Shown: one piece after another, positions 1 to 46,972 of the stretch
Layout of the letters: every line of letters begins with the position of its first letter
Position numbering within the stretch: the first letter of the stretch is position 1
Origin: Pirellulales bacterium
Lineage (GTDB): Bacteria > Planctomycetota > Planctomycetia > Pirellulales > JAIMBC01
DNA: 56,259 nt
Assembly: GCA_023511675.1 (NCBI GenBank)
Contig: JAIMBC010000003.1
Location: forward strand, 1 to 56,259
Direction of reading: 5' to 3'
The notes under the pieces: generated by a model
Database searches by the model: none
What the model saw: only the letters and a program-made list of their open reading frames with translations
What the model was told of the DNA's origin: nothing
Position numbers and translations under genes: made by a program

Positions 1-395
1 ATCCAGCACTGGTCGGTACTGTCCATACAGCACAGCAGTTCGTCCCGGGCGGTCACCTCAATGGCTGTTTTACCATACTCCCTCAGTTCGGACCGCACCA
101 CCACCCCGCCCAGTTGGTGCGCCATCAGATGCATGCCGTAGCAGATCCCCAGGATGGGTATCCCCAGGTCATAAATTGCGGGGTCACAGGAGGGCGCCCC
201 ATCTTCATACACGCTGGACGGTCCCCCGGAAAAAACAATACCCCTGGGATTCTTCGACTTTATTTCCGGCAGGGGTGTGTTAAAAGGGAGCATTTCACAA
301 AAAACCTTCAGCTCCCGGATGCGCCTGGCGATTAACTGGCTGTACTGCCCGCCGAAATCAAGCACTATCACCATTTCCCGTTCAAGATCACTCAT
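1..395 (-). CDS. guaA: GMP synthase (glutamine-hydrolysing), N-terminal glutamine amidotransferase part; runs off the window edge
   Basis: Not in the ORF track. Manual minus-strand translation from ATG at 395: [34 protein letters not shown]...[16 protein letters not shown]...[18 protein letters not shown]. DFGxQY, SGGP and GICYG are GuaA class-I GATase motifs. GGAGGT RBS upstream. Confidence 0.95.
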
Positions 396-411
396 TTCGG
401 GCTACCTCCGT

Positions 412-954
412 TTATCCGTTGGAATACTTACCGGGTTTAAGCACCGCTATTTCCCTGAGATTTCTGTATTGTTCGCCGTAGTCAAGGCCGTACCCCACCA
501 CGAACTTATCGGGTATGGCAAACCCGTTGTAGTCGGGAACCACATCCGTCTTCCGGCGGGACGGCTTGTCCAGCAAGGTACATATTTTAAGGCTGGCCGG
601 CTTCCTGGTGGAAAGGTTATCCAGCATATACTTCAATGTCAGCCCGGAATCCACAATATCCTCCACCAGTAAAACATGCCTGCCCTCTATGCTCTGGTCC
701 AGGTCCTTCAGTATCTTGACCACCCCGGACGATTCGCTGGCCTTGCCGTAGCTGGAAACGGCCATGAAATCTATGGCCAGCGGCACCGTTATGTGCCTGA
801 TCAGATCCGCCATAAAGACGACGGCCCCTTTAAGAATTCCTACCACCAGGATCTCATATCCGCGGTAATCTTCGGAAATTCTCTTGCCAAGCTCATCCAC
901 CTTTTGGGCAATCTGTTCTTCCGTCAGCAGGATTTCCTGTATGTCGGGATGCAA
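412..954 (-). CDS. hpt: Hypoxanthine phosphoribosyltransferase
   Basis: Motifs GILKGA, VLLVEDIVDSGLTL (PRPP-binding), LLDKPSRR and FVVGYGLDY. Likely start is TTG at 954 (MHPDIQEILL), downstream of GGAGGT; the ORF track starts at 966. Confidence 0.95.
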   Translation of the reverse strand: MHPDIQEILLTEEQIAQKVDELGKRISEDYRGYEILVVGILKGAVVFMADLIRHITVPLAIDFMAVSSYGKASESSGVVKILKDLDQSIEGRHVLLVEDIVDSGLTLKYMLDNLSTRKPASLKICTLLDKPSRRKTDVVPDYNGFAIPDKFVVGYGLDYGEQYRNLREIAVLKPGKYSNG

Positions 955-1007
955 TGTAAAAAACACCTCCGGCTTTTTCGTCGATACCTGTCTATTTTAC
1001 AAATCTT

Positions 1008-1036
1008 ATTATATACCACCGCCTGTCAGCTGTCAG
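1008..1036 (-). promoter_or_regulatory. Putative sigma-A promoter of hpt-guaA
   Basis: Minus strand reads CTGACA (1036-1031), 17 nt spacer, TATAAT (1013-1008), about 55 nt upstream of the hpt start. Confidence 0.6.
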
Positions 1037-1056
1037 CCTGCAGCAAACCTATTCCC

Positions 1057-1098
1057 AAAAAAGAAAAAAGAATTGGGGTAATTCATCACTTACCCCAA
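1057..1098 (-). terminator. Intrinsic terminator downstream of the 1112..1834 gene
   Basis: 9-bp stem TTGGGGTAA (1073-1081) / TTACCCCAA (1090-1098), followed on the minus strand by a long T-rich tail (complement of 1057-1072). Confidence 0.8.
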
Positions 1099-1111
1099 AT
1101 TTCCAACTGTT

Positions 1112-1834
1112 TTACTTGCTCTCTATGCTTTTCTCCAGGGGGGGATTGATTTTTATTTTTTCATTGAAATCTCTGAATCGCATTTCCACCGCCAGACCTT
1201 CGGACCCGCCGGGTATGTAGGCCTGCATGGAAGCTTTGCGGATCAGTTTTTTCCCGGGATCTATCCATACCCTGTACTTGAACTCGCTGTATTTATTCTC
1301 CAGGAACGGGTTAACCACGTTGGGCTTTAATTCCAGGACCACGGTCTTTTCCCCGTCCACCTTTTCGCTGCCCAGCTTTTTGATGACGGGGATATCCTTG
1401 AACTTAAACAGGCCCAGCGGGTTAAACTCGGTGATGAACAGTTCGGACTGCGCCAGGGAGTTTCCCTTCAGGGTGAACCACCTGTCGGACCAGGGGTCCT
1501 TCATATAGGTGGTGTCCTCGATCTGGATGAATTCCATCTGGGATTTCTGCATCGCTCCCTTGATATGGACCCTGTCGGGCTCAACCCGCTCCCCTTCAAC
1601 CAGTATAATGGTGTCCTTGCCGCCCTGTTTGACCTCAACGCTGTAGCGGTAGCTGGAACAGGCCAGGGTATTATCCAGGGCTTTATTAAACAAGTCCTTT
1701 TCCGATCCGGTGAAATTGCTCAAAAGCGACGATCCCCACCACAGAACGATCAATAAAACCGCCGCCGCCACGGCAGACGGAAAGATGCGTCTCCTGTTCA
1801 ACACGTACCAGCGCGGCCAAAGCAATAACTTCAC
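1112..1834 (-). CDS. Hypothetical membrane-anchored exported protein, possibly LolA/LppX-like fold
   Basis: 240-aa ORF with an N-terminal hydrophobic anchor (AVAAAVLLIVLWWG). The beta-rich body ends in ...VWIDPGKKLIRK...FRDFNEKIKINPP, a pattern typical of LppX/LolA-like lipoproteins. The fold call is inference. Confidence 0.6.
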   Translation of the reverse strand: MKLLLWPRWYVLNRRRIFPSAVAAAVLLIVLWWGSSLLSNFTGSEKDLFNKALDNTLACSSYRYSVEVKQGGKDTIILVEGERVEPDRVHIKGAMQKSQMEFIQIEDTTYMKDPWSDRWFTLKGNSLAQSELFITEFNPLGLFKFKDIPVIKKLGSEKVDGEKTVVLELKPNVVNPFLENKYSEFKYRVWIDPGKKLIRKASMQAYIPGGSEGLAVEMRFRDFNEKIKINPPLEKSIESK

Positions 1835-9616: not shown

Positions 9617-10056
9617 GGGCCTGTCCCCGAACGGATGGCCCAACCCAAACGGGCGGTGCATCTGGCGGCTGCCAGCCTCTGCTTCGACATGCCAAGCAGA
9701 CTCGCCGACCGTCCCCGGCCCACGCCGAAGCGGTCCAGCCGCATCAGGTGACGCCCTGACACGTGCCGGCGAAAGTGTTTCGGGGAAACTGCCGCCGCCA
9801 AAATGCCCATCCTGTTAACGAGTTCTTCGCCACACCTTCCGCCCTGCCTGGATCTCCCAGCTTGAAACATGCCAGAGATCACGAAGGCTCAGCCCTCACC
9901 GCATCTTGCAAATCTGCCCCCTTTTCCCATCCTTCCAGTTCTAAAGGTTTCACCTTACCGGTGGGGCAAACTTTGCCGAAAAAATGAAGAGTACCGAAGC
10001 AGAGGCCGATTCAACGCAGTTGAAGGGCTGTGCTTTTCTGCCCCCAAGGCCGGGCC

Positions 10057-17238: not shown

Positions 17239-17439
17239 CACTCCCTCATCAACATACAACCTCGGAGACCGTCTGCTGGACTCCTGCAACACAAACTCGA
17301 ATGTTGAAGAGCGTAGCGAAAGCACGTCCTCCCTGCCAGGGCACTCTGCCCTCGTTCACCCCTGAAGGCCAAGCACGGATCCCTCCCATTGCCCCCGCGG
17401 CAGACTGGCCCCTTGGCAATCGCAAATTAACCCAGCCTG

Positions 17440-23101: not shown

Positions 23102-23548
23102 ATGATTGGCATTACCGACCGGCAGATCGACGTAACGCAGTTGCTGTGCGAGGTGCAGTCGCCCGCGGCGGGTGCCGTGGTGCTGTTCCTGGGGACGGCG
23201 CGGGAGCAGACCGGCGGCCGGGCCACGGCCTCGCTGGACTACGAGTGTTACGGCGAGATGGCGGAGAAGAAGCTGCGGGAACTGGCAGAGGAGGCACGTC
23301 GCCGCTGGCCGCTGGTGGGGTGTGCCCTGGTCCACCGCGTGGGCCGCGTAGAACTGGGAGAGGCGAGCGTGGCGGTGGCCGTCAGCAGTCCGCACCGCCA
23401 GGCGGCGTTCGAAGCGGGCCAGTGGCTGATCGAGACATTGAAAGCGGTGGTACCCATCTGGAAGCGCGAGAACTGGGCCGACGGCACCAGCGAATGGGTC
23501 CACCCGGCCGGGCAGTCTGATGCATGGGGTGCGCGGGGTGGTCCATGA
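23102..23548 (+). CDS. moaE: Molybdopterin synthase catalytic subunit
   Basis: GAVVLFLGTAR, LDYECYGEMA, HRVGRVELGEASV.VAVSSPHR, LKAVVPIWKRE. ATG at 23102. Confidence 0.93.
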   Translation: MIGITDRQIDVTQLLCEVQSPAAGAVVLFLGTAREQTGGRATASLDYECYGEMAEKKLRELAEEARRRWPLVGCALVHRVGRVELGEASVAVAVSSPHRQAAFEAGQWLIETLKAVVPIWKRENWADGTSEWVHPAGQSDAWGARGGP

Positions 23549-34300: not shown

Positions 34301-35352
34301 TCCGTGACCGCGCCGAGATGCGCCGCGAGCATCTGACGGTCGCTGCCGTCTGCCGCATTCCAAAGCTTGACATGCCCCGTTTGGCTCCCAGACGCCAACA
34401 ACCCGCCATCAGATGACACGGCCAGCACAGCCGGCTGGCCGGGCTGGCCCGCATAGCTGCGCGTGATCTGACCCGAGCTGTCCGTGGCGCGCACCTCTCC
34501 CGCGGCCGTGGCCGTGTACACCGCCTGCCCGTTCGGGGCGAAAGCCATGGCACGCAACTCGCCCGCGTGCACGGGAAGTTGTGTGGGAGGCATCTGCGGT
34601 AGCTGCCAGATCCGCGCCGCGCCGTCGCTACCGGCCGATGCCAACAGCGCGTTGTTCGGGCCATATGCCAGACTGGAGACCCTTCCGCCGGGGCTGAACA
34701 ATGCTGCCATCTGCCGGCCGTCGGCGGGGTTCCATACCTGGATGCGGCCTGTCGCATCTGCCGAGGCCACCTCGGCACCATCGCGGCGGTAGGCGGCGGC
34801 GGTAACTGCAGCACTGTGCCCCTCGTACAGCAGCAGGGTGCTTCCCTCTGCACGCTGCCAGAGACGCAACGTGTGGTCGGCACTGCCGGTGACGGCGAGG
34901 GAGCCGTCTGGGCTGAGTGCCAGGCAGGTGATGGTCTGCTGGTGCCCCTGCCAGACGGCCAGGGGGTGGGGCACCAACATGTCCCACAGCCGCAGCGTGT
35001 TGTCTCGAGAGCCGGTGAGCAGCCGCGTTCCGTCGCTGGAAAGCGCCAGGCAAAGGACCTGGCCCTGATGGCCTTCCAGCGTGCGCAGGGTGGCGCCGGT
35101 GGCGACATCGAAGATGCGGACCGTGTTGTCGAAGCTGCCGCTGACCAGCAGTTCGCCGCTGGCAGCGAACTCGGCGGCGCTCACGCTGCTGGAGTGGCCC
35201 ACGTACTTCTCGGGCGGCTGACCGCCCGCCGGTTGGGCCAGCAAGGCAGGGGCCGCCGCCAGCAGCGTGCCAAACAGGGCTGCCACCGTGTGCAGAGGCC
35301 GTGCGCCTCGACGATCGTATGGGAGCAAGCAGGGAGGATGTGCAGGGGTCAT
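28315..35352 (-). CDS. Giant exported WD40-repeat protein (2345 aa, 56 blades by manual count)
   Basis: Signal peptide (VAALFGTLLAAAPALLA-Q) followed by uninterrupted GH...SPDG..L.SGS.D.TVR.WD repeats to the C-terminus. Confidence 0.93.
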   Translation of the reverse strand: MTPAHPPCLLPYDRRGARPLHTVAALFGTLLAAAPALLAQPAGGQPPEKYVGHSSSVSAAEFAASGELLVSGSFDNTVRIFDVATGATLRTLEGHQGQVLCLALSSDGTRLLTGSRDNTLRLWDMLVPHPLAVWQGHQQTITCLALSPDGSLAVTGSADHTLRLWQRAEGSTLLLYEGHSAAVTAAAYRRDGAEVASADATGRIQVWNPADGRQMAALFSPGGRVSSLAYGPNNALLASAGSDGAARIWQLPQMPPTQLPVHAGELRAMAFAPNGQAVYTATAAGEVRATDSSGQITRSYAGQPGQPAVLAVSSDGGLLASGSQTGHVKLWNAADGSDRQMLAAHLGAVTDVAIHPNNQQLATTGADGFVRIWQLPQAPRELAGHDAAEARACLSADGQWAVTGTADGKLRLWNAANGQIVRELTPQAQPITALAFRRDNALVASGDAAGNIRLLQTQDGAVLHAFTAAGGAVTSLAWHGNSQQLVSASGDGTVRLWRLPQSVPRSLSGHTDQVTCVAAAPGGQVAYTGSLDQTVRAFDAASGQPLRQYNNVPGAVGAVAVSPDGGLLAAAGSNGVIQFWNAGDGADRLQLAWGASVRGLAFHPQGQGLATAADDGTVRLWQLPTAPRVLSGHAQPVTVAAISPTGELACTSGADRVLRLWRLADGSQLRAWEAHGQGVTAAAFHPAQPQLATADQAGQIRLWNFEGAPLAEFHSPAGAVHSLSYNGAGTRLLSASADGSLRIWELPLAAARSWQVHADQATAVVVLGGGTHVVSGGLDQTVRLLDAASGQQVRAFEGQNGAVTSLAASGDETLLAAGSATGMIRLWSLADGADRYSLAGHVGAVRSLAFSPRGGVLASVGEDGTLRLWSLPVAPQLLSGHSQPILVMAASPDQKLLATASADHMVKVWNLNTGEAAGTLSGHAGPVTGVAWSQDAARIVTCSTDRTVRVWDAATFQQVLQCTGHEAEFTSLALAADQICAGGADGTAAVFRLADGTLLRKLDALGAPVVQVRYAARQWLLVGLADGSLRTFDAQGTPAWNAAHGAGLTNLAAGEEMAATAGADRVVRLWRLADGAAGASLPPQPADIAGISFCGQGSLALACADGLLRVVSRDGRLEETFATPNVSQRCTALAASDRNIAVGGADGHVRIFTRSLLALYSAHQGAATSLAWLDDQQLATAGADGTVRLWSRTAAQPIAELTASATVTGLAAANNGKLLAAASEARQLLAWDLSHPQTPPVSLSLDTVPRGVAVDSAGHTVLAPLDDASIAIFDLATGQPLERLRGHAAAVLGISLSADGRWVASASADRTVRLWPRTAQRVLALKQGPARAAWLPDSEAIVSAGAEGPVLLWPPDAAAGTPLEGLEGPIAAVAVAPTGSLAAAASGETVQVWHTGTGQPVQRWQLPQVCVGLAFKTSGERLAAALADGRVRVFEIPSGHLLEELRAGTAPLMTVAMAPDGKTVLAGGADQARLLAVSLLAVLGTHEGGASSVAYLPDGSRLASAGADGLVRVWSLAQGEAVANLNAGEAAACVAWSHDGQRLLCGAGSKLHIWNLADPQAAAFGKQEAILELPAPVKGLAVLREPDRLAAACEDGAVHVWSLTQRRELERVGRHSGPVLGVAAVGNTLFSAAADRTAAVTPLACELAVAAHRSVCGAVAWLDDTRFVTAGDDGRVRLFDVAGSPVQQFEAGDTPLAALAVRPGGAELAAAGGRTIFRWNLAQPGEAVRRSASAGITALAYSPDGNKFAAGCENGELRLYASQDARLLERFEFPAAVRNVAFAPDNRWLLASTADGGARLVATSLAMLLSGHKGGASGVAWFADGSRLVSAGQDGRLVMWNAADGSVLAAVQLAGGQPGRVAVSRDGGRVAVAVGKEVLVWNVAELTREGGPPEPLRLAHGGNVAALKFSPDNQRLATAADDGLVRIWDPSTGLSLEQFEAGSMGALAVHWADDNRTLATAAADGTLWLRRTCALRALACGPGPVNAVAWLPDGSLAAAGEDGRVRSFDGNGNQNRLLEGAEGPLFALAARPDGQQIAAGSANRTVYVWTPGGELIQQLQTPAAVRTLAYSQDNSRLLAGGDDGHLRVFQSQQGRLLDDFTDAAPIAAVAIAPDNKTLYSASGSSVKEWLEASPQAVRTLAGHGGPVYAVAFAPQSPLAASASADQTIRIWDTSTGNQVRQITGHQGSVYTVAYSPDGTLLASGGADTTVRIWDASTGSELKRLPGPAAPVYTVCFSPDGRLLAAGGLDKTVRVWDVATSELRWSGTGHTDHIYRVVFNPQGTRLLSCGYAGHLHVWDAAEGKPLFSHRLPAVAYYAAYHPQADRVAAACTDAAVHLVPLPAEAQ

Positions 35353-35517: not shown

Positions 35518-38500
35518 TCAGGGCGGGACGGTCTCGCTCTGCTGGACGTCTTGCGTGTCTGGCGGCAGCAGATGCACAAGTTGGCCGCTTTCGAAATGCC
35601 AGATGCGCAGGCTGCCGGAGTGTTCGATCGCTGCCAGCAATTGGGCATTGGCGGTGAGGTCGAGGGCGTTGACATAATCGGCCGCCTCCCAGGTGCGCAG
35701 CAGATTGCCGCCGTCGATTTCGTGCTGGCGGAGCAGCTTGTCTCCGCAGCCGGAGATGACGGTGGAGCTGCCGGGCAGGAATCGCAGTGCGGTGACCGGC
35801 TTGGCAAAGCCTTCGATGGCCAGCAGGGGCTCGCCGGCGAGAGGATTCCAGATGCGGACGACCCCCTCTGCGCCGGCGGAGGCGAGGCGTTCCCCATCGC
35901 TGCGCCAGGCCACGGCCAGTACATGGTGTGCGTGTCCCTCAAATCGTTGGAGTTCGCGCAGTTCCGGTACGCTAAACACCTTCACCAGCCGGTCCGCCCC
36001 TCCCGTAGCGAGATAGCGGCCATCCGGCGAAAACGCGGCTGCGAGCACGGTATCGCTGTGCGCCTGCGGCAGGTGGGCGATCAGCCGGCCGCTGGCCGCT
36101 TCCCAGAGCATCAGTTCCCCCGAGCGAGACGGATCTCCGCCTGCTGCGGCCAGCAGTGTGCCGTCGGGGCTGAACTCGAGGGCCAGCACGCGGTCTGCGG
36201 GCACATCCGCCTCTTCCCCCCCCAGTACACGGTGCAAGGGCCAGGCAGGCTCCAGCTCCCACGCGGCCGCGGTTAGCCCGCCCATGCTCGCCACGCCGCC
36301 AGCAACAAAGGCCAGGACGTGCACGGGCAGCGTGCCCGCTTCGATCACGTCGGCCGGCCGGCCCGTATCGTCTTGCCACAGGTAGATGGCGCCGCTCTCA
36401 CCTGTGGTGGCGACCACGCCCGGTGGTAAGAAGGCCGCGGCCGTGACGGTCCGCAGCGAGGTCTGAAACTCGGCCTCCAGGCTCTGCTGCCGCGTACGGA
36501 CCTCCTCGAGCGACTGCTGCAACATGCTCTTGATTGCCAGGCCGTTTTCGAGCTGGGTCTGGGCCTGGCGGTAAGCGGCCTGGGCATCTTCAGCCAGGCG
36601 GCGCGCTTCGCGCATGGCCTCCATGGCCTGCTGGGCGGCTTGCTGGGCTTGATCGGCTTCTGCCGCAAGCGCTGCGGCACGGGCCTGGGCCTCTGCCGCC
36701 ATGGGGGCCAGGGTGGCGGCGCGCTCTTCGGCTGCTGCGAGCGATTCGCGGGCTTGGTTCAGACGCTCGGCGGCGCGTTGGGAGTCGTGCTCGGCAGCTT
36801 CGGCTGCCTGGGCCAGCTTTTCGTCGTCACGCTTGGCAGCGGCGGCGCTGCGAGCTTGCTCGGCGCGCTGCGCGGCGCGCGCGGCAGCCTGTTCCAGCCG
36901 GGTGACTTGCTGCATAGCATCAGCCAGGGCGCGTTGCGCCTGGCGTGCCTGACGCGTGGCGGCAAAGGCGGCGGCCTGTGCCTGTTGCCACGCGTCCATG
37001 GCGCTTCGGAGCGTTGCCATCCGCTGGGCGTGGTCCCGTTCGGCAGCCGCGAAGGCGGTTTGTCTCGACTCGGCCTCGCTGGCACGCGGCTGGGCATCGT
37101 TCTGGGCTTGCGCCAGCAGTTCTTCATGTGCCGACAGGCGCAACTGAAGGCTCTCGGCTTGTCGCGCCAGCTTGGCGGCCTCTGCGGCCAGTCTGAAGTC
37201 TCCTTGCAACTCGCCGAGGAGCTGGCCGTCTTCAAGATTCCACAACCGGGCCGCGCCGTTTTCTCCGCCCGCAATCAGGCGTGCGCCGTCCGGCCGCACG
37301 GCAAGGGCGCGCACCGCGGCGCCCAACTCAAGCTGGCGCACAAGCTGGGCCTCAGCATTCCACTCTCGGACACGCCCTGCTGCATCTGCGGTGAACAGCC
37401 GGCCGTCGCCCACGGCCTCCATGGCCGTGAGGGGGTCATCGTGCGCCCGGATCCGGCGAGTTGCCAGCAGCGCATGGCGTCGTATCGTGCCGTCGCTGCT
37501 GCACGAGATGACACGCAGCGGGGCATCCTGCTGCTGGCTATCGACCACATCGATCCCCACTCCCGTGACCGCCGCGGTGTGCGAGGCGTACGCCTGTACG
37601 CAGCGGCCCTCTTGCACCTCGAACAGGCGCACCTGGCCCGCCGCATCTCCGCCGGCGGCAAAGCGGCCGTCCGAGGAGAAGGCAACACACGTGACAGGCG
37701 CGGTGAACCCCGTCAGCTCGCGCGCAGGACTACCGTTCTGCTCGAGCAGACGGATGCGTCCATCGTCGCACGCGGCGGCCAGCACATTGCCGGTGGGACT
37801 GACGGCAACGTCCCACCCCGCACTGCCCAGCTCCGCTGCGAATGCGGGCCGCAACTCCCCGTCCCACACGAGAAGCCGGCCATCCTCACCCGCCGAGACG
37901 ATGCGGCTGCCATCAGCACTCCAGGCCACGCTCCCCCTGCCTGCATGCGCGGCCGCCACTCTGGCCACGGGCAAGGCCGTACGCAACACGCTCCCCTCTG
38001 CTGCCACACACAGCACCTGGGAACCGGGCTGCCAGAACAAGGCATTGCACGGCGGGACATCCAGGGCAGACAACAACAGCCCTTGCGGGACATCCCAGGC
38101 ATGGACGCCGTTGGCATCCGCTGCCGCCACAAGAGTACCCTGAGAGTCAAGAGCCAACGCGTGCGGCGGCGTGCCCTGGCCGTCTGTGGCCGTCGTGATG
38201 GTCTGGATCACGCGCAGCGTCTCCAGGTCGATCACCTGGATGCCGGCGCGGTCGGTGAACTGGTGGCCTGCTTCCTCTTGCCGGTTCTGCCCAGTGGCAG
38301 CCTCTGCCGGCGCCGCGGGATCGGCGGCGGGTGGCTGGGGCGCAAATCGCACCGCCACGGCCGCTCGCGACGCCCCCGATGCCATGGCGAGTGCCACGGC
38401 CGGTCCGGCGAGCGGGACCGTGCGTGCCGATCCGAGATCGCTCAACGGCGCCGTGCGCAGCACGCCATCGCTGCCCACGGTAATCACATTCGACTGATGG

Positions 38501-40497
38501 AGGGCCATCCCCGTAACGCTCCCCTGATGCGCCGCCACGGTAAGCGGCGATGCAAGCTGATGCATGTTCCAAAGGCAGACGCGTCCGTCGGCCTCCGCAG
38601 TCAACAGAGTTTGCTGGTCCACGAAGCACACGGCCGTGGCTTGCTGATCGTGGGCCGGCCAGTGCGCCAGCTCCGGCATGCGCCGATCTGCCAGGTCCCA
38701 AACGCGCACCGTGCCGTCGTCGGCGGCCGTGGCCAAACGCTGTGCATCGGGAGAAAAGGCCAGAGCGCGAATCTGCTTGGTGTGGCCCAACAAGAGATGC
38801 GTGGTTGCTCCCTGTTCGAGATCCCGGACCACGGCCGCCGGCCGCCCGTCGATTTCCTCCGCCGTGGCAAGCCAGCGGCCGTCGTAACTGAGGGCGGCAG
38901 CCGTGGGCCGTGCCTCGTTCTGGCAAAGGGCGGCCGCCTCCGCATCCAACTGCCAGAGCCTCAGCGCACCATCGTCCGTCGCAACGACCACCCGACGGCC
39001 CTCGGGATGCACGGCCAGATCGGCCACGCGAGCCTGCCCGAGCCGCAAAGTCTGCAAGATCTCATTTGCATCGAGCGAAGCGACCTCCACCCTGCCCACA
39101 GCCGGAGCGAACGCGGCCCGGCTGCCGTCTGGCCACAACGCCACACGCTCCAGATGACCGGCTTCTCCGCGGGCAACCGTGCTGATCCTGAGATCTTCGA
39201 GAGTCAAACGGCGGAGGCGGCCATCCTGCCCGCTCACCAGCGCGCTTCGTGCAGGGGATACGACCAACGACGTGGCCGGAGCAGACAACCGCGCAATGCG
39301 CTGAGAGGCCGGCTGCTGGAGTGCCCAGTACTGCACGTAGCCGTCGCCGCTGCTGGTGGCGATGTGCGTCTCGTCCACAAGGGCAAGGTGGCGCACGGGA
39401 GCCGGCGTGATCAGCCGCCGCAACTGCCGGCTACTCTCCACGCTCCACACGCGTACGGTTCCGTCCAGCCAGGCGGCGTACAGCACTTGGCCATCGGCAG
39501 AGAACCGAACCTGCGATATGCCCGCGGCGTGGCCCCGCAACACGCCTTCCAGGCGGCCATCGACTGCGGCCAGCAGATGGATCTGTGCGTCTCCCACCAC
39601 CACCGCCACCAGACGGCCATCAGGGCTGGCAGCCAGAACGCCCGCCGACGGTCGCGCCGCGCCGCCATCCGCCATGCCCTCCTGCTGGGGCTCCGCCCCA
39701 CTCCATTGCCAGCGGCGGACGTCCCTGGGACGACGCCAAACTCGTATTGTCTTGTACCCGCCCGCGGCCAGCAGTTCGCCGGTCGGATCGAAGGCGATGG
39801 CACGCACGCCGTCTCGATCGGCCTGCCCGCTCGCCAGGGCTGGGTCGGCAAGCTGTGCTACCAACCGTCCCGTCTGAGTCTGATACACAAACAACTGCGT
39901 CCCTCGGCTGAAGGCCACCAGGGCATCATCGCTGCTGAAGCGCACGGCCCAACCGGGCTTCCAGGCAGCAGGCGGCTGGCGCCAGCGCACCGCGGCACGC
40001 CGCGATGAGACGCTGCCCGAGGCACCCTCTTCGATCCAGCGACGCAATACCTCGAGTTCTGCGTCGCCAAGCGGCTCTGCTCCCACCTGATTGTCAGGCG
40101 GAGGCATGGCCGGCTCGGTGCGGCCGCTGGTTAGGGCCAGGAGCAGGCTGTCCACGGGATTGCCGGGTACCACGGCGGGGCCGCGGGAGCCGCCGGAGCG
40201 GATGGCCTCGGGCGTCTCCAGTACCAAGCCACCTTCGCTGCGAGACGCGCTATGGCACGCCAGGCAATGCGCTTGCAGAATGGGCAGCACATGCTCTTCA
40301 AAACGAACCTTGTCTGCCGCTGGCGTGCCGGGCTGCGGAGGTTGCCCCAGCACCGCCGGATTGCAGGCAACCATGCTCATGGCAAGCCCTGCACAGCAGA
40401 GGCCTGCCCAGACGCGAGACCAGTTCGGTGGGAAAGGCAGTTCGTGGGTAAAGCGAGTCGGCATCATTGCCAGTACATCAGGGGCTGTGCTTGCCAT
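35518..40497 (-). CDS. Planctomycete cytochrome c (PSCyt1-like) + WD40 repeats (28 blades) with inserted coiled coil
   Basis: Signal-like hydrophobic segment, then VRFEEHVLPILQAHCLACH...GGLVL...AVVPG.P..SLL...MPP...WIEEGA (CxxCH at 40252-40266), WD40 blades, and an Ala/Gln/Glu helical insert at about 36455-37200. Start is 40497 or 40467. Confidence 0.9.
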   Translation of the reverse strand: MASTAPDVLAMMPTRFTHELPFPPNWSRVWAGLCCAGLAMSMVACNPAVLGQPPQPGTPAADKVRFEEHVLPILQAHCLACHSASRSEGGLVLETPEAIRSGGSRGPAVVPGNPVDSLLLALTSGRTEPAMPPPDNQVGAEPLGDAELEVLRRWIEEGASGSVSSRRAAVRWRQPPAAWKPGWAVRFSSDDALVAFSRGTQLFVYQTQTGRLVAQLADPALASGQADRDGVRAIAFDPTGELLAAGGYKTIRVWRRPRDVRRWQWSGAEPQQEGMADGGAARPSAGVLAASPDGRLVAVVVGDAQIHLLAAVDGRLEGVLRGHAAGISQVRFSADGQVLYAAWLDGTVRVWSVESSRQLRRLITPAPVRHLALVDETHIATSSGDGYVQYWALQQPASQRIARLSAPATSLVVSPARSALVSGQDGRLRRLTLEDLRISTVARGEAGHLERVALWPDGSRAAFAPAVGRVEVASLDANEILQTLRLGQARVADLAVHPEGRRVVVATDDGALRLWQLDAEAAALCQNEARPTAAALSYDGRWLATAEEIDGRPAAVVRDLEQGATTHLLLGHTKQIRALAFSPDAQRLATAADDGTVRVWDLADRRMPELAHWPAHDQQATAVCFVDQQTLLTAEADGRVCLWNMHQLASPLTVAAHQGSVTGMALHQSNVITVGSDGVLRTAPLSDLGSARTVPLAGPAVALAMASGASRAAVAVRFAPQPPAADPAAPAEAATGQNRQEEAGHQFTDRAGIQVIDLETLRVIQTITTATDGQGTPPHALALDSQGTLVAAADANGVHAWDVPQGLLLSALDVPPCNALFWQPGSQVLCVAAEGSVLRTALPVARVAAAHAGRGSVAWSADGSRIVSAGEDGRLLVWDGELRPAFAAELGSAGWDVAVSPTGNVLAAACDDGRIRLLEQNGSPARELTGFTAPVTCVAFSSDGRFAAGGDAAGQVRLFEVQEGRCVQAYASHTAAVTGVGIDVVDSQQQDAPLRVISCSSDGTIRRHALLATRRIRAHDDPLTAMEAVGDGRLFTADAAGRVREWNAEAQLVRQLELGAAVRALAVRPDGARLIAGGENGAARLWNLEDGQLLGELQGDFRLAAEAAKLARQAESLQLRLSAHEELLAQAQNDAQPRASEAESRQTAFAAAERDHAQRMATLRSAMDAWQQAQAAAFAATRQARQAQRALADAMQQVTRLEQAAARAAQRAEQARSAAAAKRDDEKLAQAAEAAEHDSQRAAERLNQARESLAAAEERAATLAPMAAEAQARAAALAAEADQAQQAAQQAMEAMREARRLAEDAQAAYRQAQTQLENGLAIKSMLQQSLEEVRTRQQSLEAEFQTSLRTVTAAAFLPPGVVATTGESGAIYLWQDDTGRPADVIEAGTLPVHVLAFVAGGVASMGGLTAAAWELEPAWPLHRVLGGEEADVPADRVLALEFSPDGTLLAAAGGDPSRSGELMLWEAASGRLIAHLPQAHSDTVLAAAFSPDGRYLATGGADRLVKVFSVPELRELQRFEGHAHHVLAVAWRSDGERLASAGAEGVVRIWNPLAGEPLLAIEGFAKPVTALRFLPGSSTVISGCGDKLLRQHEIDGGNLLRTWEAADYVNALDLTANAQLLAAIEHSGSLRIWHFESGQLVHLLPPDTQDVQQSETVPP

Positions 40498-43400
40498 CGA
40501 GATCCTCCCCTGGCGCGGCCGCGGGCGCGATCCACACCCGGAGGGGCCGCAGCACCTCGACTCCCTGGCCGTTGAAGCCGAGCGAGAGCCGCAACACGGC
40601 CTGGTGCGTGCCGAGTGCCGCATCCGGGGCTGCTTCCACCCGCAAGGCGCCCGCGGTCTGCTGCGGCTCGAGATACAGGCCTGAGGCACCAAGGCCCGCG
40701 GCGCCCTCGGGCAGCCCTAGTTCGACGGAAACCCCCTCTTCAAAGCCGAACAGGCGTACGATCGAGATGGGCAGCTCGACGCTTGTACCCGGGGCAACGG
40801 TCAATTCAGCGGGCACCGTCAGCTCGAGAGGGGCTTCGGCCACATCGATGGTCACCGAAGTCGACGGATAGGCCGCGGCATAGCCACGCGTCGCGGCTGC
40901 TTCGGCCAGCTCCGCTGCCAGGCGTTCGAGTTCGGCAAACCACTCCGCGGCCTCTGCCGCGGCGCGCTCAGCGTGAGAAAGGGTCTGTTGGGCCTGGTCG
41001 AATTCAGCTACAGCGCGTTCGAGCGCTAGCCGGCGGTGTGCCAGTTCTTCTTGAATGCGCGTGAGCTGGCTAAGGGCAGCGTCTCGTCGTTCTTGGGCAT
41101 CCCTGGAGCGTGCAGCCGCTTGTTGTAGCTGCTCGGCCAGAGCGGGGTCTGCGGGGGCTTCCTTGGCGGCGCGGCGAGCGGCCTCGAGTTGCTCGGCGGT
41201 CTGGGCCGCTTGCGCATCGGCTTCCGCACGTGCCTGTTCTGCGGCATCGAGTTCGATGCGGCCGTCTTCAACCTGGCTGCGTGCTTGCGCCAGGTTCTGC
41301 TCCGCCGCTGCGAAGGCCTCGGCGGCACGGTTGGCCGCCGCCTGCACCTCGGGCAGGGCCGCTTCCACAGCCGCCTTGCGTGCCGCGGCTGCTGCCGCGG
41401 CCTCGGGATTGCGGGCATACGGCACCTCGGCCACTCCCATCAGAGAGAACGTGTAGCGGCCTGTTGGGCAGTCTCCAGGCAGAATGAGTTCTAACGTGCC
41501 CGACGAGGCGGAACCTTCCAGATTCAGTTCATTGATCTGCTGCAAGCCGGGCGGACCGCCGCGCAGTGCAAAAGAGACGCTGCCCGCAAACCCCCCGCGC
41601 CGTACCACCTGTACGGGTATGGAAAGGCGGGCGCCGCGGCAGGTAGACAAGGCGGGCTGTTGCGTCTCCCCCAGTCGCGCGGTGAAAGGGGCCGCCTCTG
41701 CCAGAACGTGCAGCGGCAGCGCTGCACTCACCCGTGCGCGGGGCAAAGGAGGCCGCCGCGGATCGTAGGGCACCGTGCCGGCCAGCGCCGTGCGTTCCAC
41801 CACGCGGCCGCCTAAGGTGGCCCTCGCCACCACGCGCAGGTATGCCAGCGCCGGCTCCACTGCTTCATCCGCCACCAGCGTCACACTTCCGGCAGACAAC
41901 CCCGGCCCCAGCACGGCCGGCTCCGCGCTCACGCCCGGCGGCAGGCCTTCGATTTGCACCTCGACCTCTCCCGCAAAGCCCTGAATGCGATACAGAACCA
42001 GGTCGATGGTCTCCACGCCGCCAGCGCGCAGCACCAAGGGCCAGACAGCCGGCGAGCGATCGTTGGGATCCTCTCCCACTCCAGCGGTACGCGGCAGGGC
42101 AACCAGCGAGAAGTCTGGCTCGGCCTGGCGGATCAGCAGACAATACGCATGGCGCGGGTCGGCGGCTGGATTTCCGGTGAGATCCCGCAGCATCAGGCGG
42201 TATCGGCCGTCTGCCGGTGCCACAAAGAGCAGGGCGGGGTCTTTGGACTCGCAGTAGTCGGCCTGGTCGGGATGTGCGTCCAGGTCGTCGACGGCGGCCA
42301 GCTCGAGGGCTTGCTCGTTCCCCTCGTCGTCGCGCACAACCTGGTGGATCACCAGCAACGGGTCGGTCGGCAAGCCGAGACGGTGAGAGAGGACTTCGAT
42401 CCACAACGCCTCACCGCCGTTTGCATCAAAGGCGTACCAATCTCGATCGGCGCGCGAGAAGGTGCCCACCAGCTCACAGGGTACTTGCAAGGGCTGCGGC
42501 CGAGCGGGCTGGTTGTTGGGCTCACGTTCCTGTGCCAGAGGCGCAGCGGCGAAGAATAGCCGTACCGGATTGGCCGTTCCGTGCTGCGAGCGAAACAAGA
42601 GGTCGATCCCATCGAGCGCCTGGGGCGCCAGCTCCAGGGGCAGGCCAGCATGTTCTCCCCACGCCAGGACGCCGCCCATGTCCGCCGCTGTTGGAAGCGA
42701 GAAGCCTGCCACATCCTGCGAGTCCATATCGGGCGCAGCCGGAACCGGCCCCTCCGTTGCGCTGTCTGGGTGGGGGGGCTGACCGGCCGCGCCGGCAGGG
42801 GGCAGTTCCGGCGAAGCAGAGGAGCGGACCGTGCCTGGCCGTGCAGGCGATGAATTTTCCGCTGCCGGCTCGGACGCCCGGGCCGCAGCCGTGGCACCTT
42901 CCAGCACGGCCTGAAGGAAGCGTACCGAGGCGTCGGGAAGAGACAGCTCTAGGGAAAGCTCTTCCAGCTCATGGTTTCCGATGCGCACTCCCTTGGCCCG
43001 CTTGCCCCCGATATTGCGGCCGTACAGGGTGATGCGGCTGCTTTGTCCGGCGGGGATGGCCGGCGGAAACACCATATCGATGTACGGCCCCGTCGTGGCA
43101 TGCAGGCGGTACACATAGCCGAGCATGCCGTCTCCGCCGTACGCCGCGTCATGCACGGCCACATGGTAGATCGCGGGCCGCGCGGGAGTCACATCCAGGA
43201 TGGCACGCCCGTACACGCCGCTCGTAGCCGTGGCAAGCTGGGCTCCCTGCTCGTCATGCAGCACGAGCGTGGGGGCAGCACGTGAGTCGATCTGCCTTGC
43301 CTCGCACACGATCAGCGTCCGTGCCGCCCCTAAGGCCAGGCGGTACACGTCCACGTCTCCTTCTCCCTCCAGCACGCCATTGGCCACCGCCTCCAGCGTC

Positions 43401-43834
43401 AGCTCCGTGGCTGCATCGCACTGGTTGTTCGGTTCCGTTTCACGCACTTCAGGCCGGCTGCCCACCATGAATGGCCGCGGATTGGAAAGACCGTACCTTC
43501 CCTGGACGCGCAGTTCATACGTGCCGGCAGCAACCTCCGCCCCGATTGAAACGATGAAGCGATTGGCCGCCACTTGCGGTTCGCTCTCCGTCAACCTGGG
43601 GGGGCGCATCAGCGGTTCGGCCGCAATGCCCGGATGAGAGGCGATCAGCCGTGCGGGCTCTGCCGCCGCCCCATCCAGGTCCGCGCCGGCTACCTCCACT
43701 TCCACACGGGTACCCGCCTGTCCTCCAGCGGGGAACAGGCCATACAGCCGCGCTATGGGCAACTGTGCCTCCGCAGCGCGCAGCACAAGCAGGAGCCACA
43801 AGCAAAGGCAGCCGCACGGTACTTTAGGCCGCAT
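40478..43834 (-). CDS. Exported PPC (pre-peptidase C-terminal)/Ig-like repeat protein with inserted coiled coil
   Basis: Signal peptide, LFPAGGQAGT.VEV.V.G.DL, two E.EPNN motifs, DVDVY/DRDWY, DP.L.F.APADG.Y and PDFSL, plus a helical insert at about 40885-41420. No protease catalytic motif seen. Confidence 0.85.
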   Translation of the reverse strand: MRPKVPCGCLCLWLLLVLRAAEAQLPIARLYGLFPAGGQAGTRVEVEVAGADLDGAAAEPARLIASHPGIAAEPLMRPPRLTESEPQVAANRFIVSIGAEVAAGTYELRVQGRYGLSNPRPFMVGSRPEVRETEPNNQCDAATELTLEAVANGVLEGEGDVDVYRLALGAARTLIVCEARQIDSRAAPTLVLHDEQGAQLATATSGVYGRAILDVTPARPAIYHVAVHDAAYGGDGMLGYVYRLHATTGPYIDMVFPPAIPAGQSSRITLYGRNIGGKRAKGVRIGNHELEELSLELSLPDASVRFLQAVLEGATAAARASEPAAENSSPARPGTVRSSASPELPPAGAAGQPPHPDSATEGPVPAAPDMDSQDVAGFSLPTAADMGGVLAWGEHAGLPLELAPQALDGIDLLFRSQHGTANPVRLFFAAAPLAQEREPNNQPARPQPLQVPCELVGTFSRADRDWYAFDANGGEALWIEVLSHRLGLPTDPLLVIHQVVRDDEGNEQALELAAVDDLDAHPDQADYCESKDPALLFVAPADGRYRLMLRDLTGNPAADPRHAYCLLIRQAEPDFSLVALPRTAGVGEDPNDRSPAVWPLVLRAGGVETIDLVLYRIQGFAGEVEVQIEGLPPGVSAEPAVLGPGLSAGSVTLVADEAVEPALAYLRVVARATLGGRVVERTALAGTVPYDPRRPPLPRARVSAALPLHVLAEAAPFTARLGETQQPALSTCRGARLSIPVQVVRRGGFAGSVSFALRGGPPGLQQINELNLEGSASSGTLELILPGDCPTGRYTFSLMGVAEVPYARNPEAAAAAAARKAAVEAALPEVQAAANRAAEAFAAAEQNLAQARSQVEDGRIELDAAEQARAEADAQAAQTAEQLEAARRAAKEAPADPALAEQLQQAAARSRDAQERRDAALSQLTRIQEELAHRRLALERAVAEFDQAQQTLSHAERAAAEAAEWFAELERLAAELAEAAATRGYAAAYPSTSVTIDVAEAPLELTVPAELTVAPGTSVELPISIVRLFGFEEGVSVELGLPEGAAGLGASGLYLEPQQTAGALRVEAAPDAALGTHQAVLRLSLGFNGQGVEVLRPLRVWIAPAAAPGEDLDGKHSP

Positions 43835-43851: not shown

Positions 43852-46557
43852 CTAGTGGTTGAACTGAAATTCCTTGGTGTTCACCAGGGCCCAGAGAATG
43901 TCTTCCAGGGCCTGGCGCTTGTCTTCAGCCCGCTGGAGGTGGCCGAGGGTGAGCTGCAACTCTTCCGCCGTGGGACGCCTGGCAAACGCCCAGGCATAGA
44001 TTTCTTCGACGCGCTGGGTGTCGGTGAGCGACTCGTCCGCGGCGAGCCGAGCCGCCCGCCCCCCCTCCGCGGCGAGCCGAAGCTGGACCTCTTCCGAGTT
44101 CAGCAGGTGCAGGCTCTGCGCCAGGTTCGCCTCGCTGGAGCGTTCGCACTCGCAGGCACTGGTCCCCTCGGGCCGGCCGAAGATCTGCAAGAAGTAATTG
44201 CTAATGCTGCTATCGGGAAGCTGCACGGCTCGCGTTCCAGCAGGCAAGCCGGAGAATTCGGGTACCGTGCCGGTAAGCTGATGCAAGGCGTCATACAACA
44301 CCTCGGCTTGCAGCCGCCTGGGATAATAGTGAGAGAAGTTGCGGCGATCGAACTGATTGAGCCCGCTCGGCTCGGAGGCGAGCTGATAGGTTTGAGAGCG
44401 GCAAATGGTGCGGATCAGCTCCTTGAGATCGAAGCCGCTGCGCACAAAATGCTGGGCCAGCGCCTGCAACAACTCCGGATGGGAGGGAGGATTGGTCACC
44501 CGCATGTCGTCTTCGGGATCGACAATGCCGCGGCCGAAGAAGTGCTTCCAGTAGCGATTCACCAGCGCCGCGGCAAAGTAGGGATTCTCCGCAGAGGCCA
44601 TCCAGTCGACGAGCGCCTGCCGCGGATCGTCGTCGGGGTCGATCGTCAGGGGCGTGCCTCCCAGCACGGCCGGGGGTAGCGTCTCCCCGGTGCGGGGATT
44701 CACCGCGCCGGCCTGGCCGCGGTCGTGGAACACGGCCGGCTCGTCATTGCCAAGCCCCCCAGAACCTGGCTTGATCCCCACCCGAGAAAAGAATGCCGCC
44801 AGCGAGTAATAGTCGTGCTGGCTCCAACGCTCGAAGGGATGATGATGGCAGCGTGCGCACTGGATGCGCAGCCCGAGGAATAATTGCGCGGTATCCTCCA
44901 CCTGCAATTCCATGGTGTTTACCATGCGATACCACGCCACCGGCGGATGCTCCAGAAGCTCGCCCGTGGCCGCCAGAATGCTGCGCACAAACTCGTCGTA
45001 CGGCATGTTCTCGTATATCGCCTGGCGAATCCAGCCGTGGAAAGCGTATGTGCCTCGCGCCGCGTTATCGTTCGTGCGGCGGTTGCGCAGAATGGCATTC
45101 CACTTGGCGGCGAAAAAGTCGGCATATTCCGGCGAGGCCAGCAGCCGCTCGATCAGCCGCTCACGCTTGGCCGCGTCCCGCTCAGCCTCGAAGGCGCGCA
45201 ACTCTTCCGCTGTAGGCAGCCGGCCGGCGATGTCGAGCGTGGCGCGGCGCAAGAACGTGGCATCATCGCACGGGGGAGAAGCGGGCAAGCCCAACGCTTG
45301 CAGGCGGGCGAACACCAGCTCGTCGATGAAGTTGCGTGGCTGCGGCATGGCGGGCGGAGGCCCATCTGCCGGCAGCGTGGCCCGAAACACGGCCACCTCC
45401 CCTTGATAGCGCGCCATGACTGCCACGTCTCCTATCCCGTCCAGCGCGCGCACCAGGCCGTTGCGCTTCACCTCAGCCATCTCTGCGTCGTTCGACTCGA
45501 ACTGCGCCAGCGCCGTGACGTCTTGCTGCGTGCCGTCGCTGAAGCTGGCCAGCACCACAAGCTGCTGCTCGCCGCCCTGCCTCATCGTCCGTTGTGCGGG
45601 GTAGACATCCAGCCCCGCAATCACCGGATCCTCGGGCGTGCCGTAGCGCAGGCCCTGCTCCATCCAGCGCACGAGAAGCTGATACTCGGGCCCATCCGCC
45701 TCCACACGCCGCCCCCCTCCGTGGGCCAGCGTGCCGGTCGCCTTCAGCAACAGCAAGCTCCGCTCGGGAGCCGCGGGAAACACCCTTCGCCCACGCGCCT
45801 CCTTGGTCAAATACTCATAGTCCTCGTCGGGATAAAACCCCAGCAGCGATAGCTTGAACCCGTTCTGCCCGCTCGACTTGCCGTGGCAGGCCCCCGCGTT
45901 GCACCCGTGCTTGGTGAAGATGGGCACAACCTGATTCACAAAGTTGATCGGCGGCGGGTCGGCCAACTGCGCCACCTGAAGCTCGATCCGCGCCCGCAGC
46001 TTGCCCGGCCCCCGCGCCGTCACGCGCACTCTGCCCTCGGCAATCGGCTTGACCAGCCCAGCCGCATCGACCTCCACCACGCCCGCCGGAAGCGCCTCGT
46101 AGTGCACGCGCCGCGTCAGGTCCACCAGTCGGCCGTCAGCAAGGCGGCCGGTCACCAGGAGCTGCTTGCGGGCATCGGCACCGTGCAATTCGTTTGGCCC
46201 GTGCTGTTCGAACAGGATTTCGACGACTTCGGCGGACGTGCCGGTGCCTTGCTTTGCCTGTGGATCGCTCTGACACGGGTCGCTCCACGCCAATGCCAGG
46301 GCGAAGCCCAGGACGGCGGCCGCCCCCGCGCAGCCAAACCGAGATCTGGTCTCGAGCGCAGTGCCTCCGCCACGCCCTGCCCTACGGGACGCTTCCTCAC
46401 GCTGGCCGCCCGCAGATGGGCCGAGGGGGCCTTGCCCCGTACGGCCCCCCAACCGCGGTGGGCTCCAAAACAGGCTCTTCGGGGGCTTGCCGGGGTAAGA
46501 GCGTCCGCTCGAACATGCAACCCGCTCATCCCCGTGGGAAGATGCTCGTATCCGCAT
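43852..46557 (-). CDS. DUF1549 + DUF1553 (PSD1) protein with N-terminal Ig-like domains; start uncertain
   Basis: NFVNQVVPIFTKHGCNAGACHG..GQNGFKLSLLG, NFIDELV..L..LG, FLRRATLDIAGRLPT, FLGLRIQCARCHHHPFERW, NPYFA..VNRYW..FGRGIV.P.DD, RRLQAEVL.D, CECER, EDILWALVNTKEFQFNH. Confidence 0.92.
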   Translation of the reverse strand: MRIRASSHGDERVACSSGRSYPGKPPKSLFWSPPRLGGRTGQGPLGPSAGGQREEASRRAGRGGGTALETRSRFGCAGAAAVLGFALALAWSDPCQSDPQAKQGTGTSAEVVEILFEQHGPNELHGADARKQLLVTGRLADGRLVDLTRRVHYEALPAGVVEVDAAGLVKPIAEGRVRVTARGPGKLRARIELQVAQLADPPPINFVNQVVPIFTKHGCNAGACHGKSSGQNGFKLSLLGFYPDEDYEYLTKEARGRRVFPAAPERSLLLLKATGTLAHGGGRRVEADGPEYQLLVRWMEQGLRYGTPEDPVIAGLDVYPAQRTMRQGGEQQLVVLASFSDGTQQDVTALAQFESNDAEMAEVKRNGLVRALDGIGDVAVMARYQGEVAVFRATLPADGPPPAMPQPRNFIDELVFARLQALGLPASPPCDDATFLRRATLDIAGRLPTAEELRAFEAERDAAKRERLIERLLASPEYADFFAAKWNAILRNRRTNDNAARGTYAFHGWIRQAIYENMPYDEFVRSILAATGELLEHPPVAWYRMVNTMELQVEDTAQLFLGLRIQCARCHHHPFERWSQHDYYSLAAFFSRVGIKPGSGGLGNDEPAVFHDRGQAGAVNPRTGETLPPAVLGGTPLTIDPDDDPRQALVDWMASAENPYFAAALVNRYWKHFFGRGIVDPEDDMRVTNPPSHPELLQALAQHFVRSGFDLKELIRTICRSQTYQLASEPSGLNQFDRRNFSHYYPRRLQAEVLYDALHQLTGTVPEFSGLPAGTRAVQLPDSSISNYFLQIFGRPEGTSACECERSSEANLAQSLHLLNSEEVQLRLAAEGGRAARLAADESLTDTQRVEEIYAWAFARRPTAEELQLTLGHLQRAEDKRQALEDILWALVNTKEFQFNH

Positions 46558-46972
46558 GGGAACTACTCCTCGGCCAGAACCATCTGCGGTACGGCGGCTC
46601 ACCGCGGCACGTGCCAGCTTCGGGCGGCGCTGTGGTGGCAACCGCCACCAATGCGGGCCGCCAGGCAGCTCCCTCACCGCATGGCAGGTCCACATACCGT
46701 CCTGTACCGGAGGGACCACGGGCACATCCCTTCGCTAGGCCTAACGGGCAGGCAGCCACACGGGCCGCCTGGGCCTGGCGGCTCGAGGCATGCGCGGTCC
46801 TTTGCAACAACTTGACTGGTGCGGCTCGTTGGTTTCGTTATTCTCGCCGGCATGAGCCACGATGCAACCCACGGCCCCGGAGCAAGCTCCATTGAGACCA
46901 TGCCCGCGGGGAAGCAAGCCAAGTTTGGCCCGCCGCGGGCGATGACACCACCCTCGTGACGGCAGCGGCAGC

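Follow-up and report, generated by a model that had tools for sequence, protein, structure and literature searches.

The gene examined here lies on the reverse strand of a 56,259-nucleotide stretch of Pirellulales DNA (contig JAIMBC010000003.1, positions 1 to 56,259; hereafter the window) and is predicted to encode an exported protein with a putative haem c domain and 28 blades of the WD40 type. The reading frame is open from position 40692, where a TTG start would yield 1724 amino acids, and an ATG at 40497 yields a protein of 1659 amino acids. A GGAGG sequence is located about 7 nucleotides 5' of this ATG, which agrees with 35518-40497 as the extent of a real gene. In a stored gene call (P0002, 1620 amino acids) the start is at Met40, in which case the signal peptide would be lost. 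The protein matches two Pfam families well above their cut-offs, namely PSCyt1 (PF07635; residues 78-135, E 4.3e-15, 56.5 bits against a cut-off of 22) and WD40 (PF00400; E 1.2e-100, 326 bits against 27). An NCBIfam search gave sub-threshold matches only.

As read from the sequence, the N-terminus consists of a basic residue, the hydrophobic stretch VWAGLCCAGLAMSMVA and then Cys45. A signal peptide is predicted at residues 1-45, which makes this a predicted exported protein, and this region is also its least conserved part. The peptide ends in S-M-V-A-C (residues 40-45, window 40363-40380), which presumably fits a lipobox pattern; the Cys is not kept in orthologues. The original prediction had placed a haem domain at the N-terminus on the strength of the motif CLACH, and the motif is indeed present at residues 78-82 (window 40252-40266), at the start of the PSCyt1 match. 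Residues C78, C81, H82 and M131-P132-P133 are invariant among 21 aligned orthologues, and M131 is a candidate axial Met of the putative haem c domain. Searches by sequence find no solved relative of this domain, the best E of 0.45 (SoxY) being at chance level.

The remainder of the protein had been described as 28 blades laid out along the chain in blocks of 2+3+3+7+4+4+5. All seven of the quoted motif strings are found exactly once and in the proposed order: CLACH (residue 78), WRRP (254), WALQQP (391), WQLD (515), TALPVARV (840), HALLATRR (1008) and WELEPAWPL (1413). Manual reading of the translation gives 28 blades. A hidden Markov model (HMM) of the blade gives 31 matches, which become 28 blades once two negative-scoring matches inside the helical segment (1206-1229 and 1267-1284) are removed and two others (967-980 and 995-1011) are merged as the halves of one blade with an insertion between them. 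The manual list served as the seed of this HMM, which was rebuilt three times from matches in the target and in a 2345-amino acid neighbour, and therefore the HMM count is not fully independent of the manual one. In an AlphaFold2 model of residues 270-1425, DSSP assigns 83 strands, which corresponds to 21 blades (3-23) with the last strand lost at the construct end. The claimed number of blades is thus reproduced by the manual reading and the HMM, and DSSP agrees for the 21 blades that it covers.

A helical segment of about 245 residues was also proposed, inserted in the middle of the second four-blade block and projecting as a long hairpin from the second propeller. Both proposals are borne out by the predicted models. 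The segment (37200-36455, residues 1100-1348) falls between blades 21 and 22, where DSSP finds two helices at residues 1101-1221 and 1226-1347, and a corresponding pair is predicted at residues 518-617 and 622-721 of a 14-blade homologue described below. With about 120 residues per arm, each arm would be about 18 nm long if straight, at 1.5 Å per residue. The hairpin segment has no match to a Pfam family.

Table 1. Features of the 28-blade gene and of the two genes upstream of it. Positions are those of the window; rings, blades and helices are as predicted; identity is that of the target to 18 distant orthologues.
Feature	Residues	Window position	Strand	Basis	Identity
Whole gene; predicted exported PSCyt1 haem c / 28-blade WD40 protein	1659 in total	35518..40497	-	ORF (open reading frame), Pfam, GGAGG	
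N-terminal signal peptide region	1-45	40363..40497	-	read from sequence	
PSCyt1 haem c domain	61-165	40003..40317	-	PF07635; invariant C78/C81/H82/M131	0.49
Ring 1, N-terminal part: blades 1-2, ends in WRRPRDV	172-257	39727..39984	-	HMM; predicted contacts with blades 28/24; ring of the homologue L050; motif conservation	0.42
Ring 2, N-terminal part: crossover strand and blades 3-5	258-396	39310..39726	-	DSSP; homology to the L050 inner ring	0.31
Ring 3, N-terminal part: blades 6-8	397-526	38920..39309	-	alignment ranges start at model 126-128 = residues 395-397	0.22
Ring 4, innermost and contiguous: blades 9-15	527-849	37951..38919	-	28 DSSP strands; contiguous seven-blade matches	0.26
Low-confidence loop in blade 13 of ring 4	732-746	within 37951..38919	-	AlphaFold2 model	
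Ring 3, C-terminal part: blades 16-19	850-1011	37465..37950	-	alignment ranges end at model 740-744 = residues 1009-1013	0.26
Ring 2, C-terminal part 1: blades 20-21, orthologous to short-form blades 6-7	1012-1099	37201..37464	-	orthology, DSSP	0.37
Antiparallel helical hairpin	1100-1348	36454..37200	-	AlphaFold2 DSSP; also in L050	
Ring 2, C-terminal part 2: blades 22-23, orthologous to short-form blades 8-9	1349-1415	36253..36453	-	DSSP, orthology	0.28
Ring 1, C-terminal part: linker PAWPLHRVLG and blades 24-28	1416-1636	35590..36252	-	predicted contacts with blades 1-2	0.42
Gene C; 1118-amino acid exported protein, weak PPC		40478..43834	-	E 0.0047	
Gene D; PSCyt2/PSD1/Big_2 protein, 957 amino acids as listed, CARCH at residue 623		43852..46725	-	Pfam	

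We propose that the 28 blades form four seven-bladed rings through which the chain passes in a nested order, a reading to which we assign a probability of roughly 0.7 to 0.8. The outbound chain would lay 2, 3 and 3 blades into rings 1, 2 and 3, ring 4 would then be completed contiguously by blades 9-15, and the returning chain would add the missing 4, 4 and 5 blades to rings 3, 2 and 1. Wherever the chain crosses between adjoining rings, they would be linked by a pair of short antiparallel connectors. Strand bookkeeping suggests that each connector, on entering a ring, supplies one of its blades with the outer (D) strand, and thus every ring pair would be tied twice. The helical hairpin would project from ring 2 between blades 21 and 22, whereas ring 1 would hold both chain ends, the haem domain and the best-conserved blades.

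The AlphaFold2 construct of residues 270-1425 (21-row orthologue alignment; predicted local distance difference test score, pLDDT, 86.7; predicted template modelling score, pTM, 0.68) holds complete rings under either of two layouts, namely 8-14 and 15-21 if rings follow one another along the chain, or 6-8+16-19 and 9-15 if they are nested. Ring membership was judged from the first and last aligned residues and the aligned length against solved seven-blade propellers. In the first structural comparison, all 50 solved seven-blade chains listed align some 273-320 residues to a split span of about 600-690 residues, running from model 53-128 to model 731-744. The best of these, 5yzv_B (Z 40.2, root mean square deviation (rmsd) 1.8 Å, 283 of 288 residues), covers model 128..740, or residues 397..1009. 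With about 285 residues aligned over a span of about 613, the predicted ring would be composed of residues ~397-526 and ~850-1011, the intervening stretch of about 320 residues being looped out. Solved seven-blade propellers superpose on a ring of residues ~396-526 and ~850-1011 at 1.8-2.0 Å.

A Foldseek-independent search gives the same split ring for 48 of the 50 matches listed. The remaining two correspond to a contiguous ring at residues 507/514..843/845 (7ad3_F, Z 31.7, rmsd 3.0; 6cvz_A, Z 29.6, rmsd 2.8). The boundaries of both rings coincide with WALQQP, WQLD, TALPVARV and HALLATRR, and neither set fits sequential rings 8-14 or 15-21. Indeed, the spans that these would occupy (residues 486-803 or 812-1088) are seen in none of the 50 matches listed in either comparison of the target model. 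The DSSP strand list is consistent with the nested order, in that ring 4 receives 28 strands, ring 3 receives 13+15 = 28, and ring 2 receives 11+9+7 = 27 plus one located just before the construct start, where we infer the ring to which each strand at a junction belongs.

Additional evidence comes from the family to which this protein belongs. A census of 78 related loci yielded 64 candidate ORFs. Among these are 38 short forms (948-1171 amino acids) in which the haem domain is followed by about 7 blades, a gap of 153-384 residues and about 7 more blades; the count is exactly 7+7 in 24 of them, and one or two weak blades are missed in the other 14. There are also 14 long forms (1572-1767 amino acids) with 14-20 above-zero blades before the gap and 21-27 in total, and a single ORF of 1384 amino acids (L017 9887-14041, forward strand) whose 21 blades are divided as 14, a 295-residue gap and 7. 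The blade totals are read as 14, 21 or 28 and are always multiples of seven, which argues that the 28-blade pattern is not due to chance. A second PSCyt1/WD40 paralogue is present in the same genome (L079, contig C84, ~5159-9934, reverse strand). Its 1613-amino acid frame carries CxxCH and 28 blades divided as 21, gap and 7, is 37-43% identical to the target and fits the family profile better than the target does; a homologue of the 1118-amino acid gene precedes it.

When a profile of the short form is compared with the target, blades 1-5 correspond to short-form blades 1-5, blades 20-21 to 6-7 and blades 22-28 to 8-14. This orthology indicates that blades 6-19 constitute a 14-blade insertion. 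Relative to the 14-blade form, they may amount to two extra rings inserted after blade 5 and before blade 6 of an ancestral inner ring. Per-blade orthology failed to place the extra seven blades of L017, and thus gives no insertion point for that protein.

A natural short form of 1037 amino acids (L050) was modelled at full length with AlphaFold2 (50-row alignment; pLDDT 87.1, pTM 0.74). A plain fold of 7 blades, hairpin and 7 blades was open to this protein, and none of the 50 matches listed has the corresponding contiguous spans (200-515 or 725-1025). Instead, 16 of the 50 span 199-214..1013-1027, which implies an outer ring of blades 1-2 and 10-14 (for example 7bie_A, Z 43.6, rmsd 1.4 Å, 283 aligned), and 34 span 225-288..791-795, which implies an inner ring of blades 3-7, hairpin and blades 8-9 (for example 3ow8_A, Z 39.3, rmsd 1.7 Å, 284 aligned). 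Taken across the predicted models, closed seven-bladed rings match solved chains at Z 38-44 and rmsd 1.3-2.1 Å over 273-290 residues. In rings 1-3, about 285 aligned residues are spread over spans of 500-830, and ring 4 alone is predicted to consist of seven consecutive blades. The boundaries of the originally proposed partition and its nested pairing are therefore reproduced by the structure predictions of the target and of this homologue. Sequential propellers, which had been named beforehand as the outcome that would speak against it, are predicted in none of the 50 matches listed per comparison.

Closure of the outer ring in the target itself was addressed with ESMFold2, which was given residues 166-262 and residues 1412-1659 as two chains with our own alignment. 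The score is 0.93 (0.94, 0.93 and 0.93 in separate runs), and the best of three controls scores 0.03. The score mark is reached by 116 of 157 solved complexes and by 2 of 215 mismatched pairs, a calibration that is rough here given the use of our own alignment. The runs have at least 87% of their contacts in common, and the partner pLDDT is at least 80. Predicted contacts between residues 180-198 and 1610-1632 place blade 1 beside blade 28, and those between 229-257 and 1416-1451 place blade 2 beside the linker and blade 24.

Sequence conservation in the target drops symmetrically from both chain ends to the centre (Table 1), and the C-terminal part of ring 1 is the best-conserved WD40 region of the protein. 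This profile is supportive rather than decisive, as it would also be expected of a protein with conserved ends and a variable middle. The linkers at the crossover between rings 1 and 2 are conserved as well (W254, R255, P257 and V260; W1413, P1417, W1419, L1421 and G1426), with the consensus K-L-W-R-R-P-R-D-V after blade 2 and V-W-x-L-x-P-x-W-x-L-E-R-x-I-G after blade 23. These 2|3 and 23|24 linkers show the highest conservation of all linkers, and a sequential fold assigns no special role to them.

Several observations weigh against the nested order. The structural evidence is all predicted, and the prediction pipeline has no positive control in the form of a solved sequential tandem propeller folded in the same manner. 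Throughout the family, the coiled coil is followed by exactly 7 blades and preceded by 7, 14 or 21, which is the natural outcome of a sequential layout, whereas nesting must yield the 7 before it as 2+3+2 = 7. Ring 2 of the target is not seen directly in the target model because no listed match spans model ~14..1146 in either comparison; its existence is suggested by homology to the L050 model and by the strand count. The ESMFold2 controls are unrelated proteins rather than other WD40 fragments, and thus generic blade complementarity could pass this test. Split propellers also look like solved structures, and the ESMFold2 result shows likeness and compatibility, not proof.

The foremost alternative is that the rings are consecutive (1-7, 8-14, 15-21, a coiled-coil linker and 22-28) and that the nested models are a predictor artefact of near-equivalent blades. 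This 7+7+7|coiled coil|7 layout was favoured at the outset because blade 21 is followed directly by the coiled coil and then by 7 blades, just as blade 7 or 14 is in relatives. The census figures fit it without further assumptions, as does the 14+7 division of L017, and the solved tandem propellers 2ymu_A and 3mkq_A use consecutive blades. It was given up in view of the split rings, the fold predicted for L050 and the closure of blades 1-2 on 24-28, this last being the result of a second predictor. Moreover, both AlphaFold2 models are confident (pLDDT ~87, pTM 0.68-0.74), none of the 50 matches listed in each of the three comparisons has contiguous spans of the sequential kind, and neither the palindromic course of conservation nor the conserved 2|3 and 23|24 linkers would follow from it. 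Even with the missing positive control counted in its favour, we consider consecutive rings improbable.

A mixed arrangement, in which the 14-blade scaffold is sequential (1-5+20-21, coiled coil, 22-28) and only the inserted blades 6-19 are nested as 3+7+4, would account for the rule of 7 before and 7 after, for the insertion relative to the short form and for rings 3 and 4 being the only ones seen directly in the target's AlphaFold2 model, but it is very improbable given that both rings of the full-length 14-blade homologue are predicted to be nested, that the prediction for the target itself places blades 1-2 between blades 28 and 24, and that the 2|3 and 23|24 linkers are the best conserved of all.

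The genes upstream provide context for the nested protein. The start of the target gene overlaps the stop of an 1118-amino acid gene by 20 nucleotides, and this gene is in turn separated by 17 nucleotides from one encoding a PSCyt2/PSD1/Big_2 protein (Pfam E 5e-52, 4e-48 and 2e-07, respectively). In the 1118-amino acid protein the signal peptide is clear and the PPC match weak, and a segment of about 160 residues (829-988) looks helical and gives a sub-threshold SMC-like match. A pairing between this segment and the hairpin of the target was considered and rejected, as their lengths do not co-vary (Spearman -0.12, n=38, on a crude composition-based measure). The PSCyt2/PSD1 gene is kept 5' of homologues of the target at 52-60% identity. 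Both partner genes adjoin the homologue in 38 of 78 loci, and in 37 of these they are upstream and in the same order; one of the two is present in a further 13 loci, and many of the remaining loci end too near the gene to tell. In three loci (L026, L050 and L068) the PSCyt2/PSD1 gene is directly 5' of the PSCyt1/WD40 gene with no homologue of the 1118-amino acid gene detected between them, and thus the cluster is not uniform. Every look-alike in the Atlas is a PSCyt1+WD40 cluster, from either Verrucomicrobiota or Planctomycetota.

A cluster described for the Planctomycetes-Verrucomicrobia-Chlamydiae (PVC) group comprises four genes, which encode a DUF1501 protein, a protein with a signal peptide and a weak PPC match, one that combines PSCyt1, Big_2, PSCyt2 and PSD1, and one that combines PSCyt1 with WD40 (Kamneva et al. 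2012, PMC3542564). The passages on its domains give them no function (PMC3542564; PMC5615132, the latter stating that nothing is known), and a passage of PMC5587647 places DUF1501 beside planctomycete WD40 genes. The adjacent PSCyt2/PSD1(/Big_2) gene and the PPC-like signal-peptide gene are present at the locus examined here. There is no adjacent DUF1501 gene; the nearest ones (3231-4607, reverse strand, and 8033-9616, forward strand) are more than 25 kb away, and DUF1501 is likewise not adjacent in two related loci inspected.

Downstream of the target by 165 nucleotides is a 2345-amino acid WD40 gene (28315-35352, reverse strand), which is not kept beside homologues in two loci inspected. Its product has a signal-peptide-like N-terminus and no CxxCH, and the blade HMM gives 57 matches, one of them negative, leaving 56 blades or eight sets of seven. 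Other genes in the window encode an SBP56 selenium-binding protein (12915-14384), an H+-pyrophosphatase (14563-17325), a Ser/Thr kinase (21469-23004), a MoaA-like radical S-adenosylmethionine protein (23524-24579) and a PP2C protein (47722-49053), with a ClpB fragment at the window end. Positions 1-2000 have a GC fraction of 0.495, compared with 0.62-0.70 elsewhere in the window.

With regard to function, ring 1 and the haem may form the working core, which would sense redox state or relay electrons and bind partners within the PSCyt2/PSD1 - PPC-like - PSCyt1/WD40 cluster. The additional rings, together with the hairpin, might then act in the periplasm as a rigid spacer and an arm for docking. 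We infer that an exported haem-bearing core, extended by a doubly tethered stack of less conserved rings and by the hairpin, would offer the cluster partners a platform for binding or redox relay. The explanation as a whole, which joins a Sec-exported, periplasmic haem c protein, four nested rings and this proposed role, seems likely to us.

Perhaps the core is a catalytic redox site instead of a scaffold or sensor, with a propeller active site connected to a haem c in the manner of cytochrome cd1 nitrite reductase and quinohaemoprotein dehydrogenases. The protein is best conserved in its haem domain and ring 1, with an invariant loop in blade 24 (G1454, P1456, S1457, R1458 and G1460) plus H1480, D1482 and E1520-G1521-H1522, and the pairing of haem c with a propeller recurs in periplasmic redox enzymes. 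Hydrazine synthase beta (5c2v_B) is also found among the ring matches (Z 34.9 and 32.0), but these matches are generic WD40 ones. Pfam and NCBIfam searches detect no cofactor-binding family, no substrate-related genes are kept beside the cluster in two loci inspected, and WD40 propellers are typically binding platforms. We therefore regard catalysis as unlikely.

WD40 proteins with several propellers are usually depicted like beads threaded on a string. If the ring-in-ring reading is correct, a propeller chain nested at three levels with double connectors would represent a distinct architectural principle for repeat proteins. One tentative and rather doubtful extension is that ring-in-ring insertion is a general growth mode of exported PVC WD40 proteins. 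On this view, every closure register would keep native blade-blade interfaces after a seven-blade tandem duplication, and thus a shifted register could be fixed, giving doubly tethered, rigid propeller chains of 14, 21 or 28 blades and perhaps the 56 of the neighbour. In the present family, the periplasmic reach of the haem-bearing ring 1 module would then depend on how many rings are nested and on the 15-18 nm hairpin, and folding at the Sec channel would proceed from the inside out, with ring 1 closing once the last blades are exported. The nested architecture and its predicted contacts bear on which closure register gets fixed when propellers evolve by duplication, on how repeat counts are turned into domain boundaries for annotation and construct design, and on the folding of very large exported proteins. 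They also offer a structural handle and testable contacts for a cluster conserved in Planctomycetota and Verrucomicrobiota. Should the prediction be wrong, the family would be a useful hard case for structure predictors.

Among known systems, the PSCyt1/WD40 proteins of the PVC group are the closest in composition. As far as the account in PMC3542564 goes, they share with the target the pairing of a PSCyt1 haem c motif with a WD40 domain, the neighbouring PSCyt2/PSD1/Big_2 protein and weak-PPC signal-peptide protein, and an occurrence in Planctomycetota and Verrucomicrobiota. The differences are that this account describes architecture by domains whereas a predicted three-dimensional topology is given here, and that its cluster includes the DUF1501 gene that does not adjoin the target. 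The target also has 28 blades rather than the 14 of the common family form.

Periplasmic redox proteins that combine haem c with a propeller include cytochrome cd1 nitrite reductase, the quinohaemoprotein dehydrogenases and hydrazine synthase. As is predicted for the target, they are exported and have an N-terminal c-type haem domain beside a propeller. Their propellers are not of the WD40 type and hold a cofactor or active site, neither of which is detected in the target.

Several seven-blade rings per chain are also present in the tandem WD40 propellers 2ymu_A (Nostoc), 3mkq_A and 2ynp_A (yeast beta'-COP) and 4nsx_A (Utp21), whose rings are built from consecutive blades. Single rings of these proteins superpose on the predicted models at 1.3-2.7 Å, one ring at a time, and 284 of the 577 residues of 2ymu_A align. 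Chains that align over 474-504 residues reach an rmsd of 15-23 Å, in a size range (above 400 residues) where the aligner is weaker. With the same weakness above 400 residues, none of 48,161 representative solved chains superposes both rings of the L050 model among the matches listed. A literature search, with subscription journals outside its coverage, found no nested or inserted propeller topology. Unlike the tandem propellers, each ring of the target but the innermost is predicted to combine an N-terminal with a C-terminal run of blades.

The integrin alpha I domain is an example of an entire domain inserted between two adjacent blades of a closed propeller. In the protein described here, the inserted domain would itself be a propeller, three levels deep, with a hairpin in ring 2 in addition. 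Both the family and the gene cluster have been described before, with generic annotation only, and the nested topology would be a new structural variant at the level of prediction.

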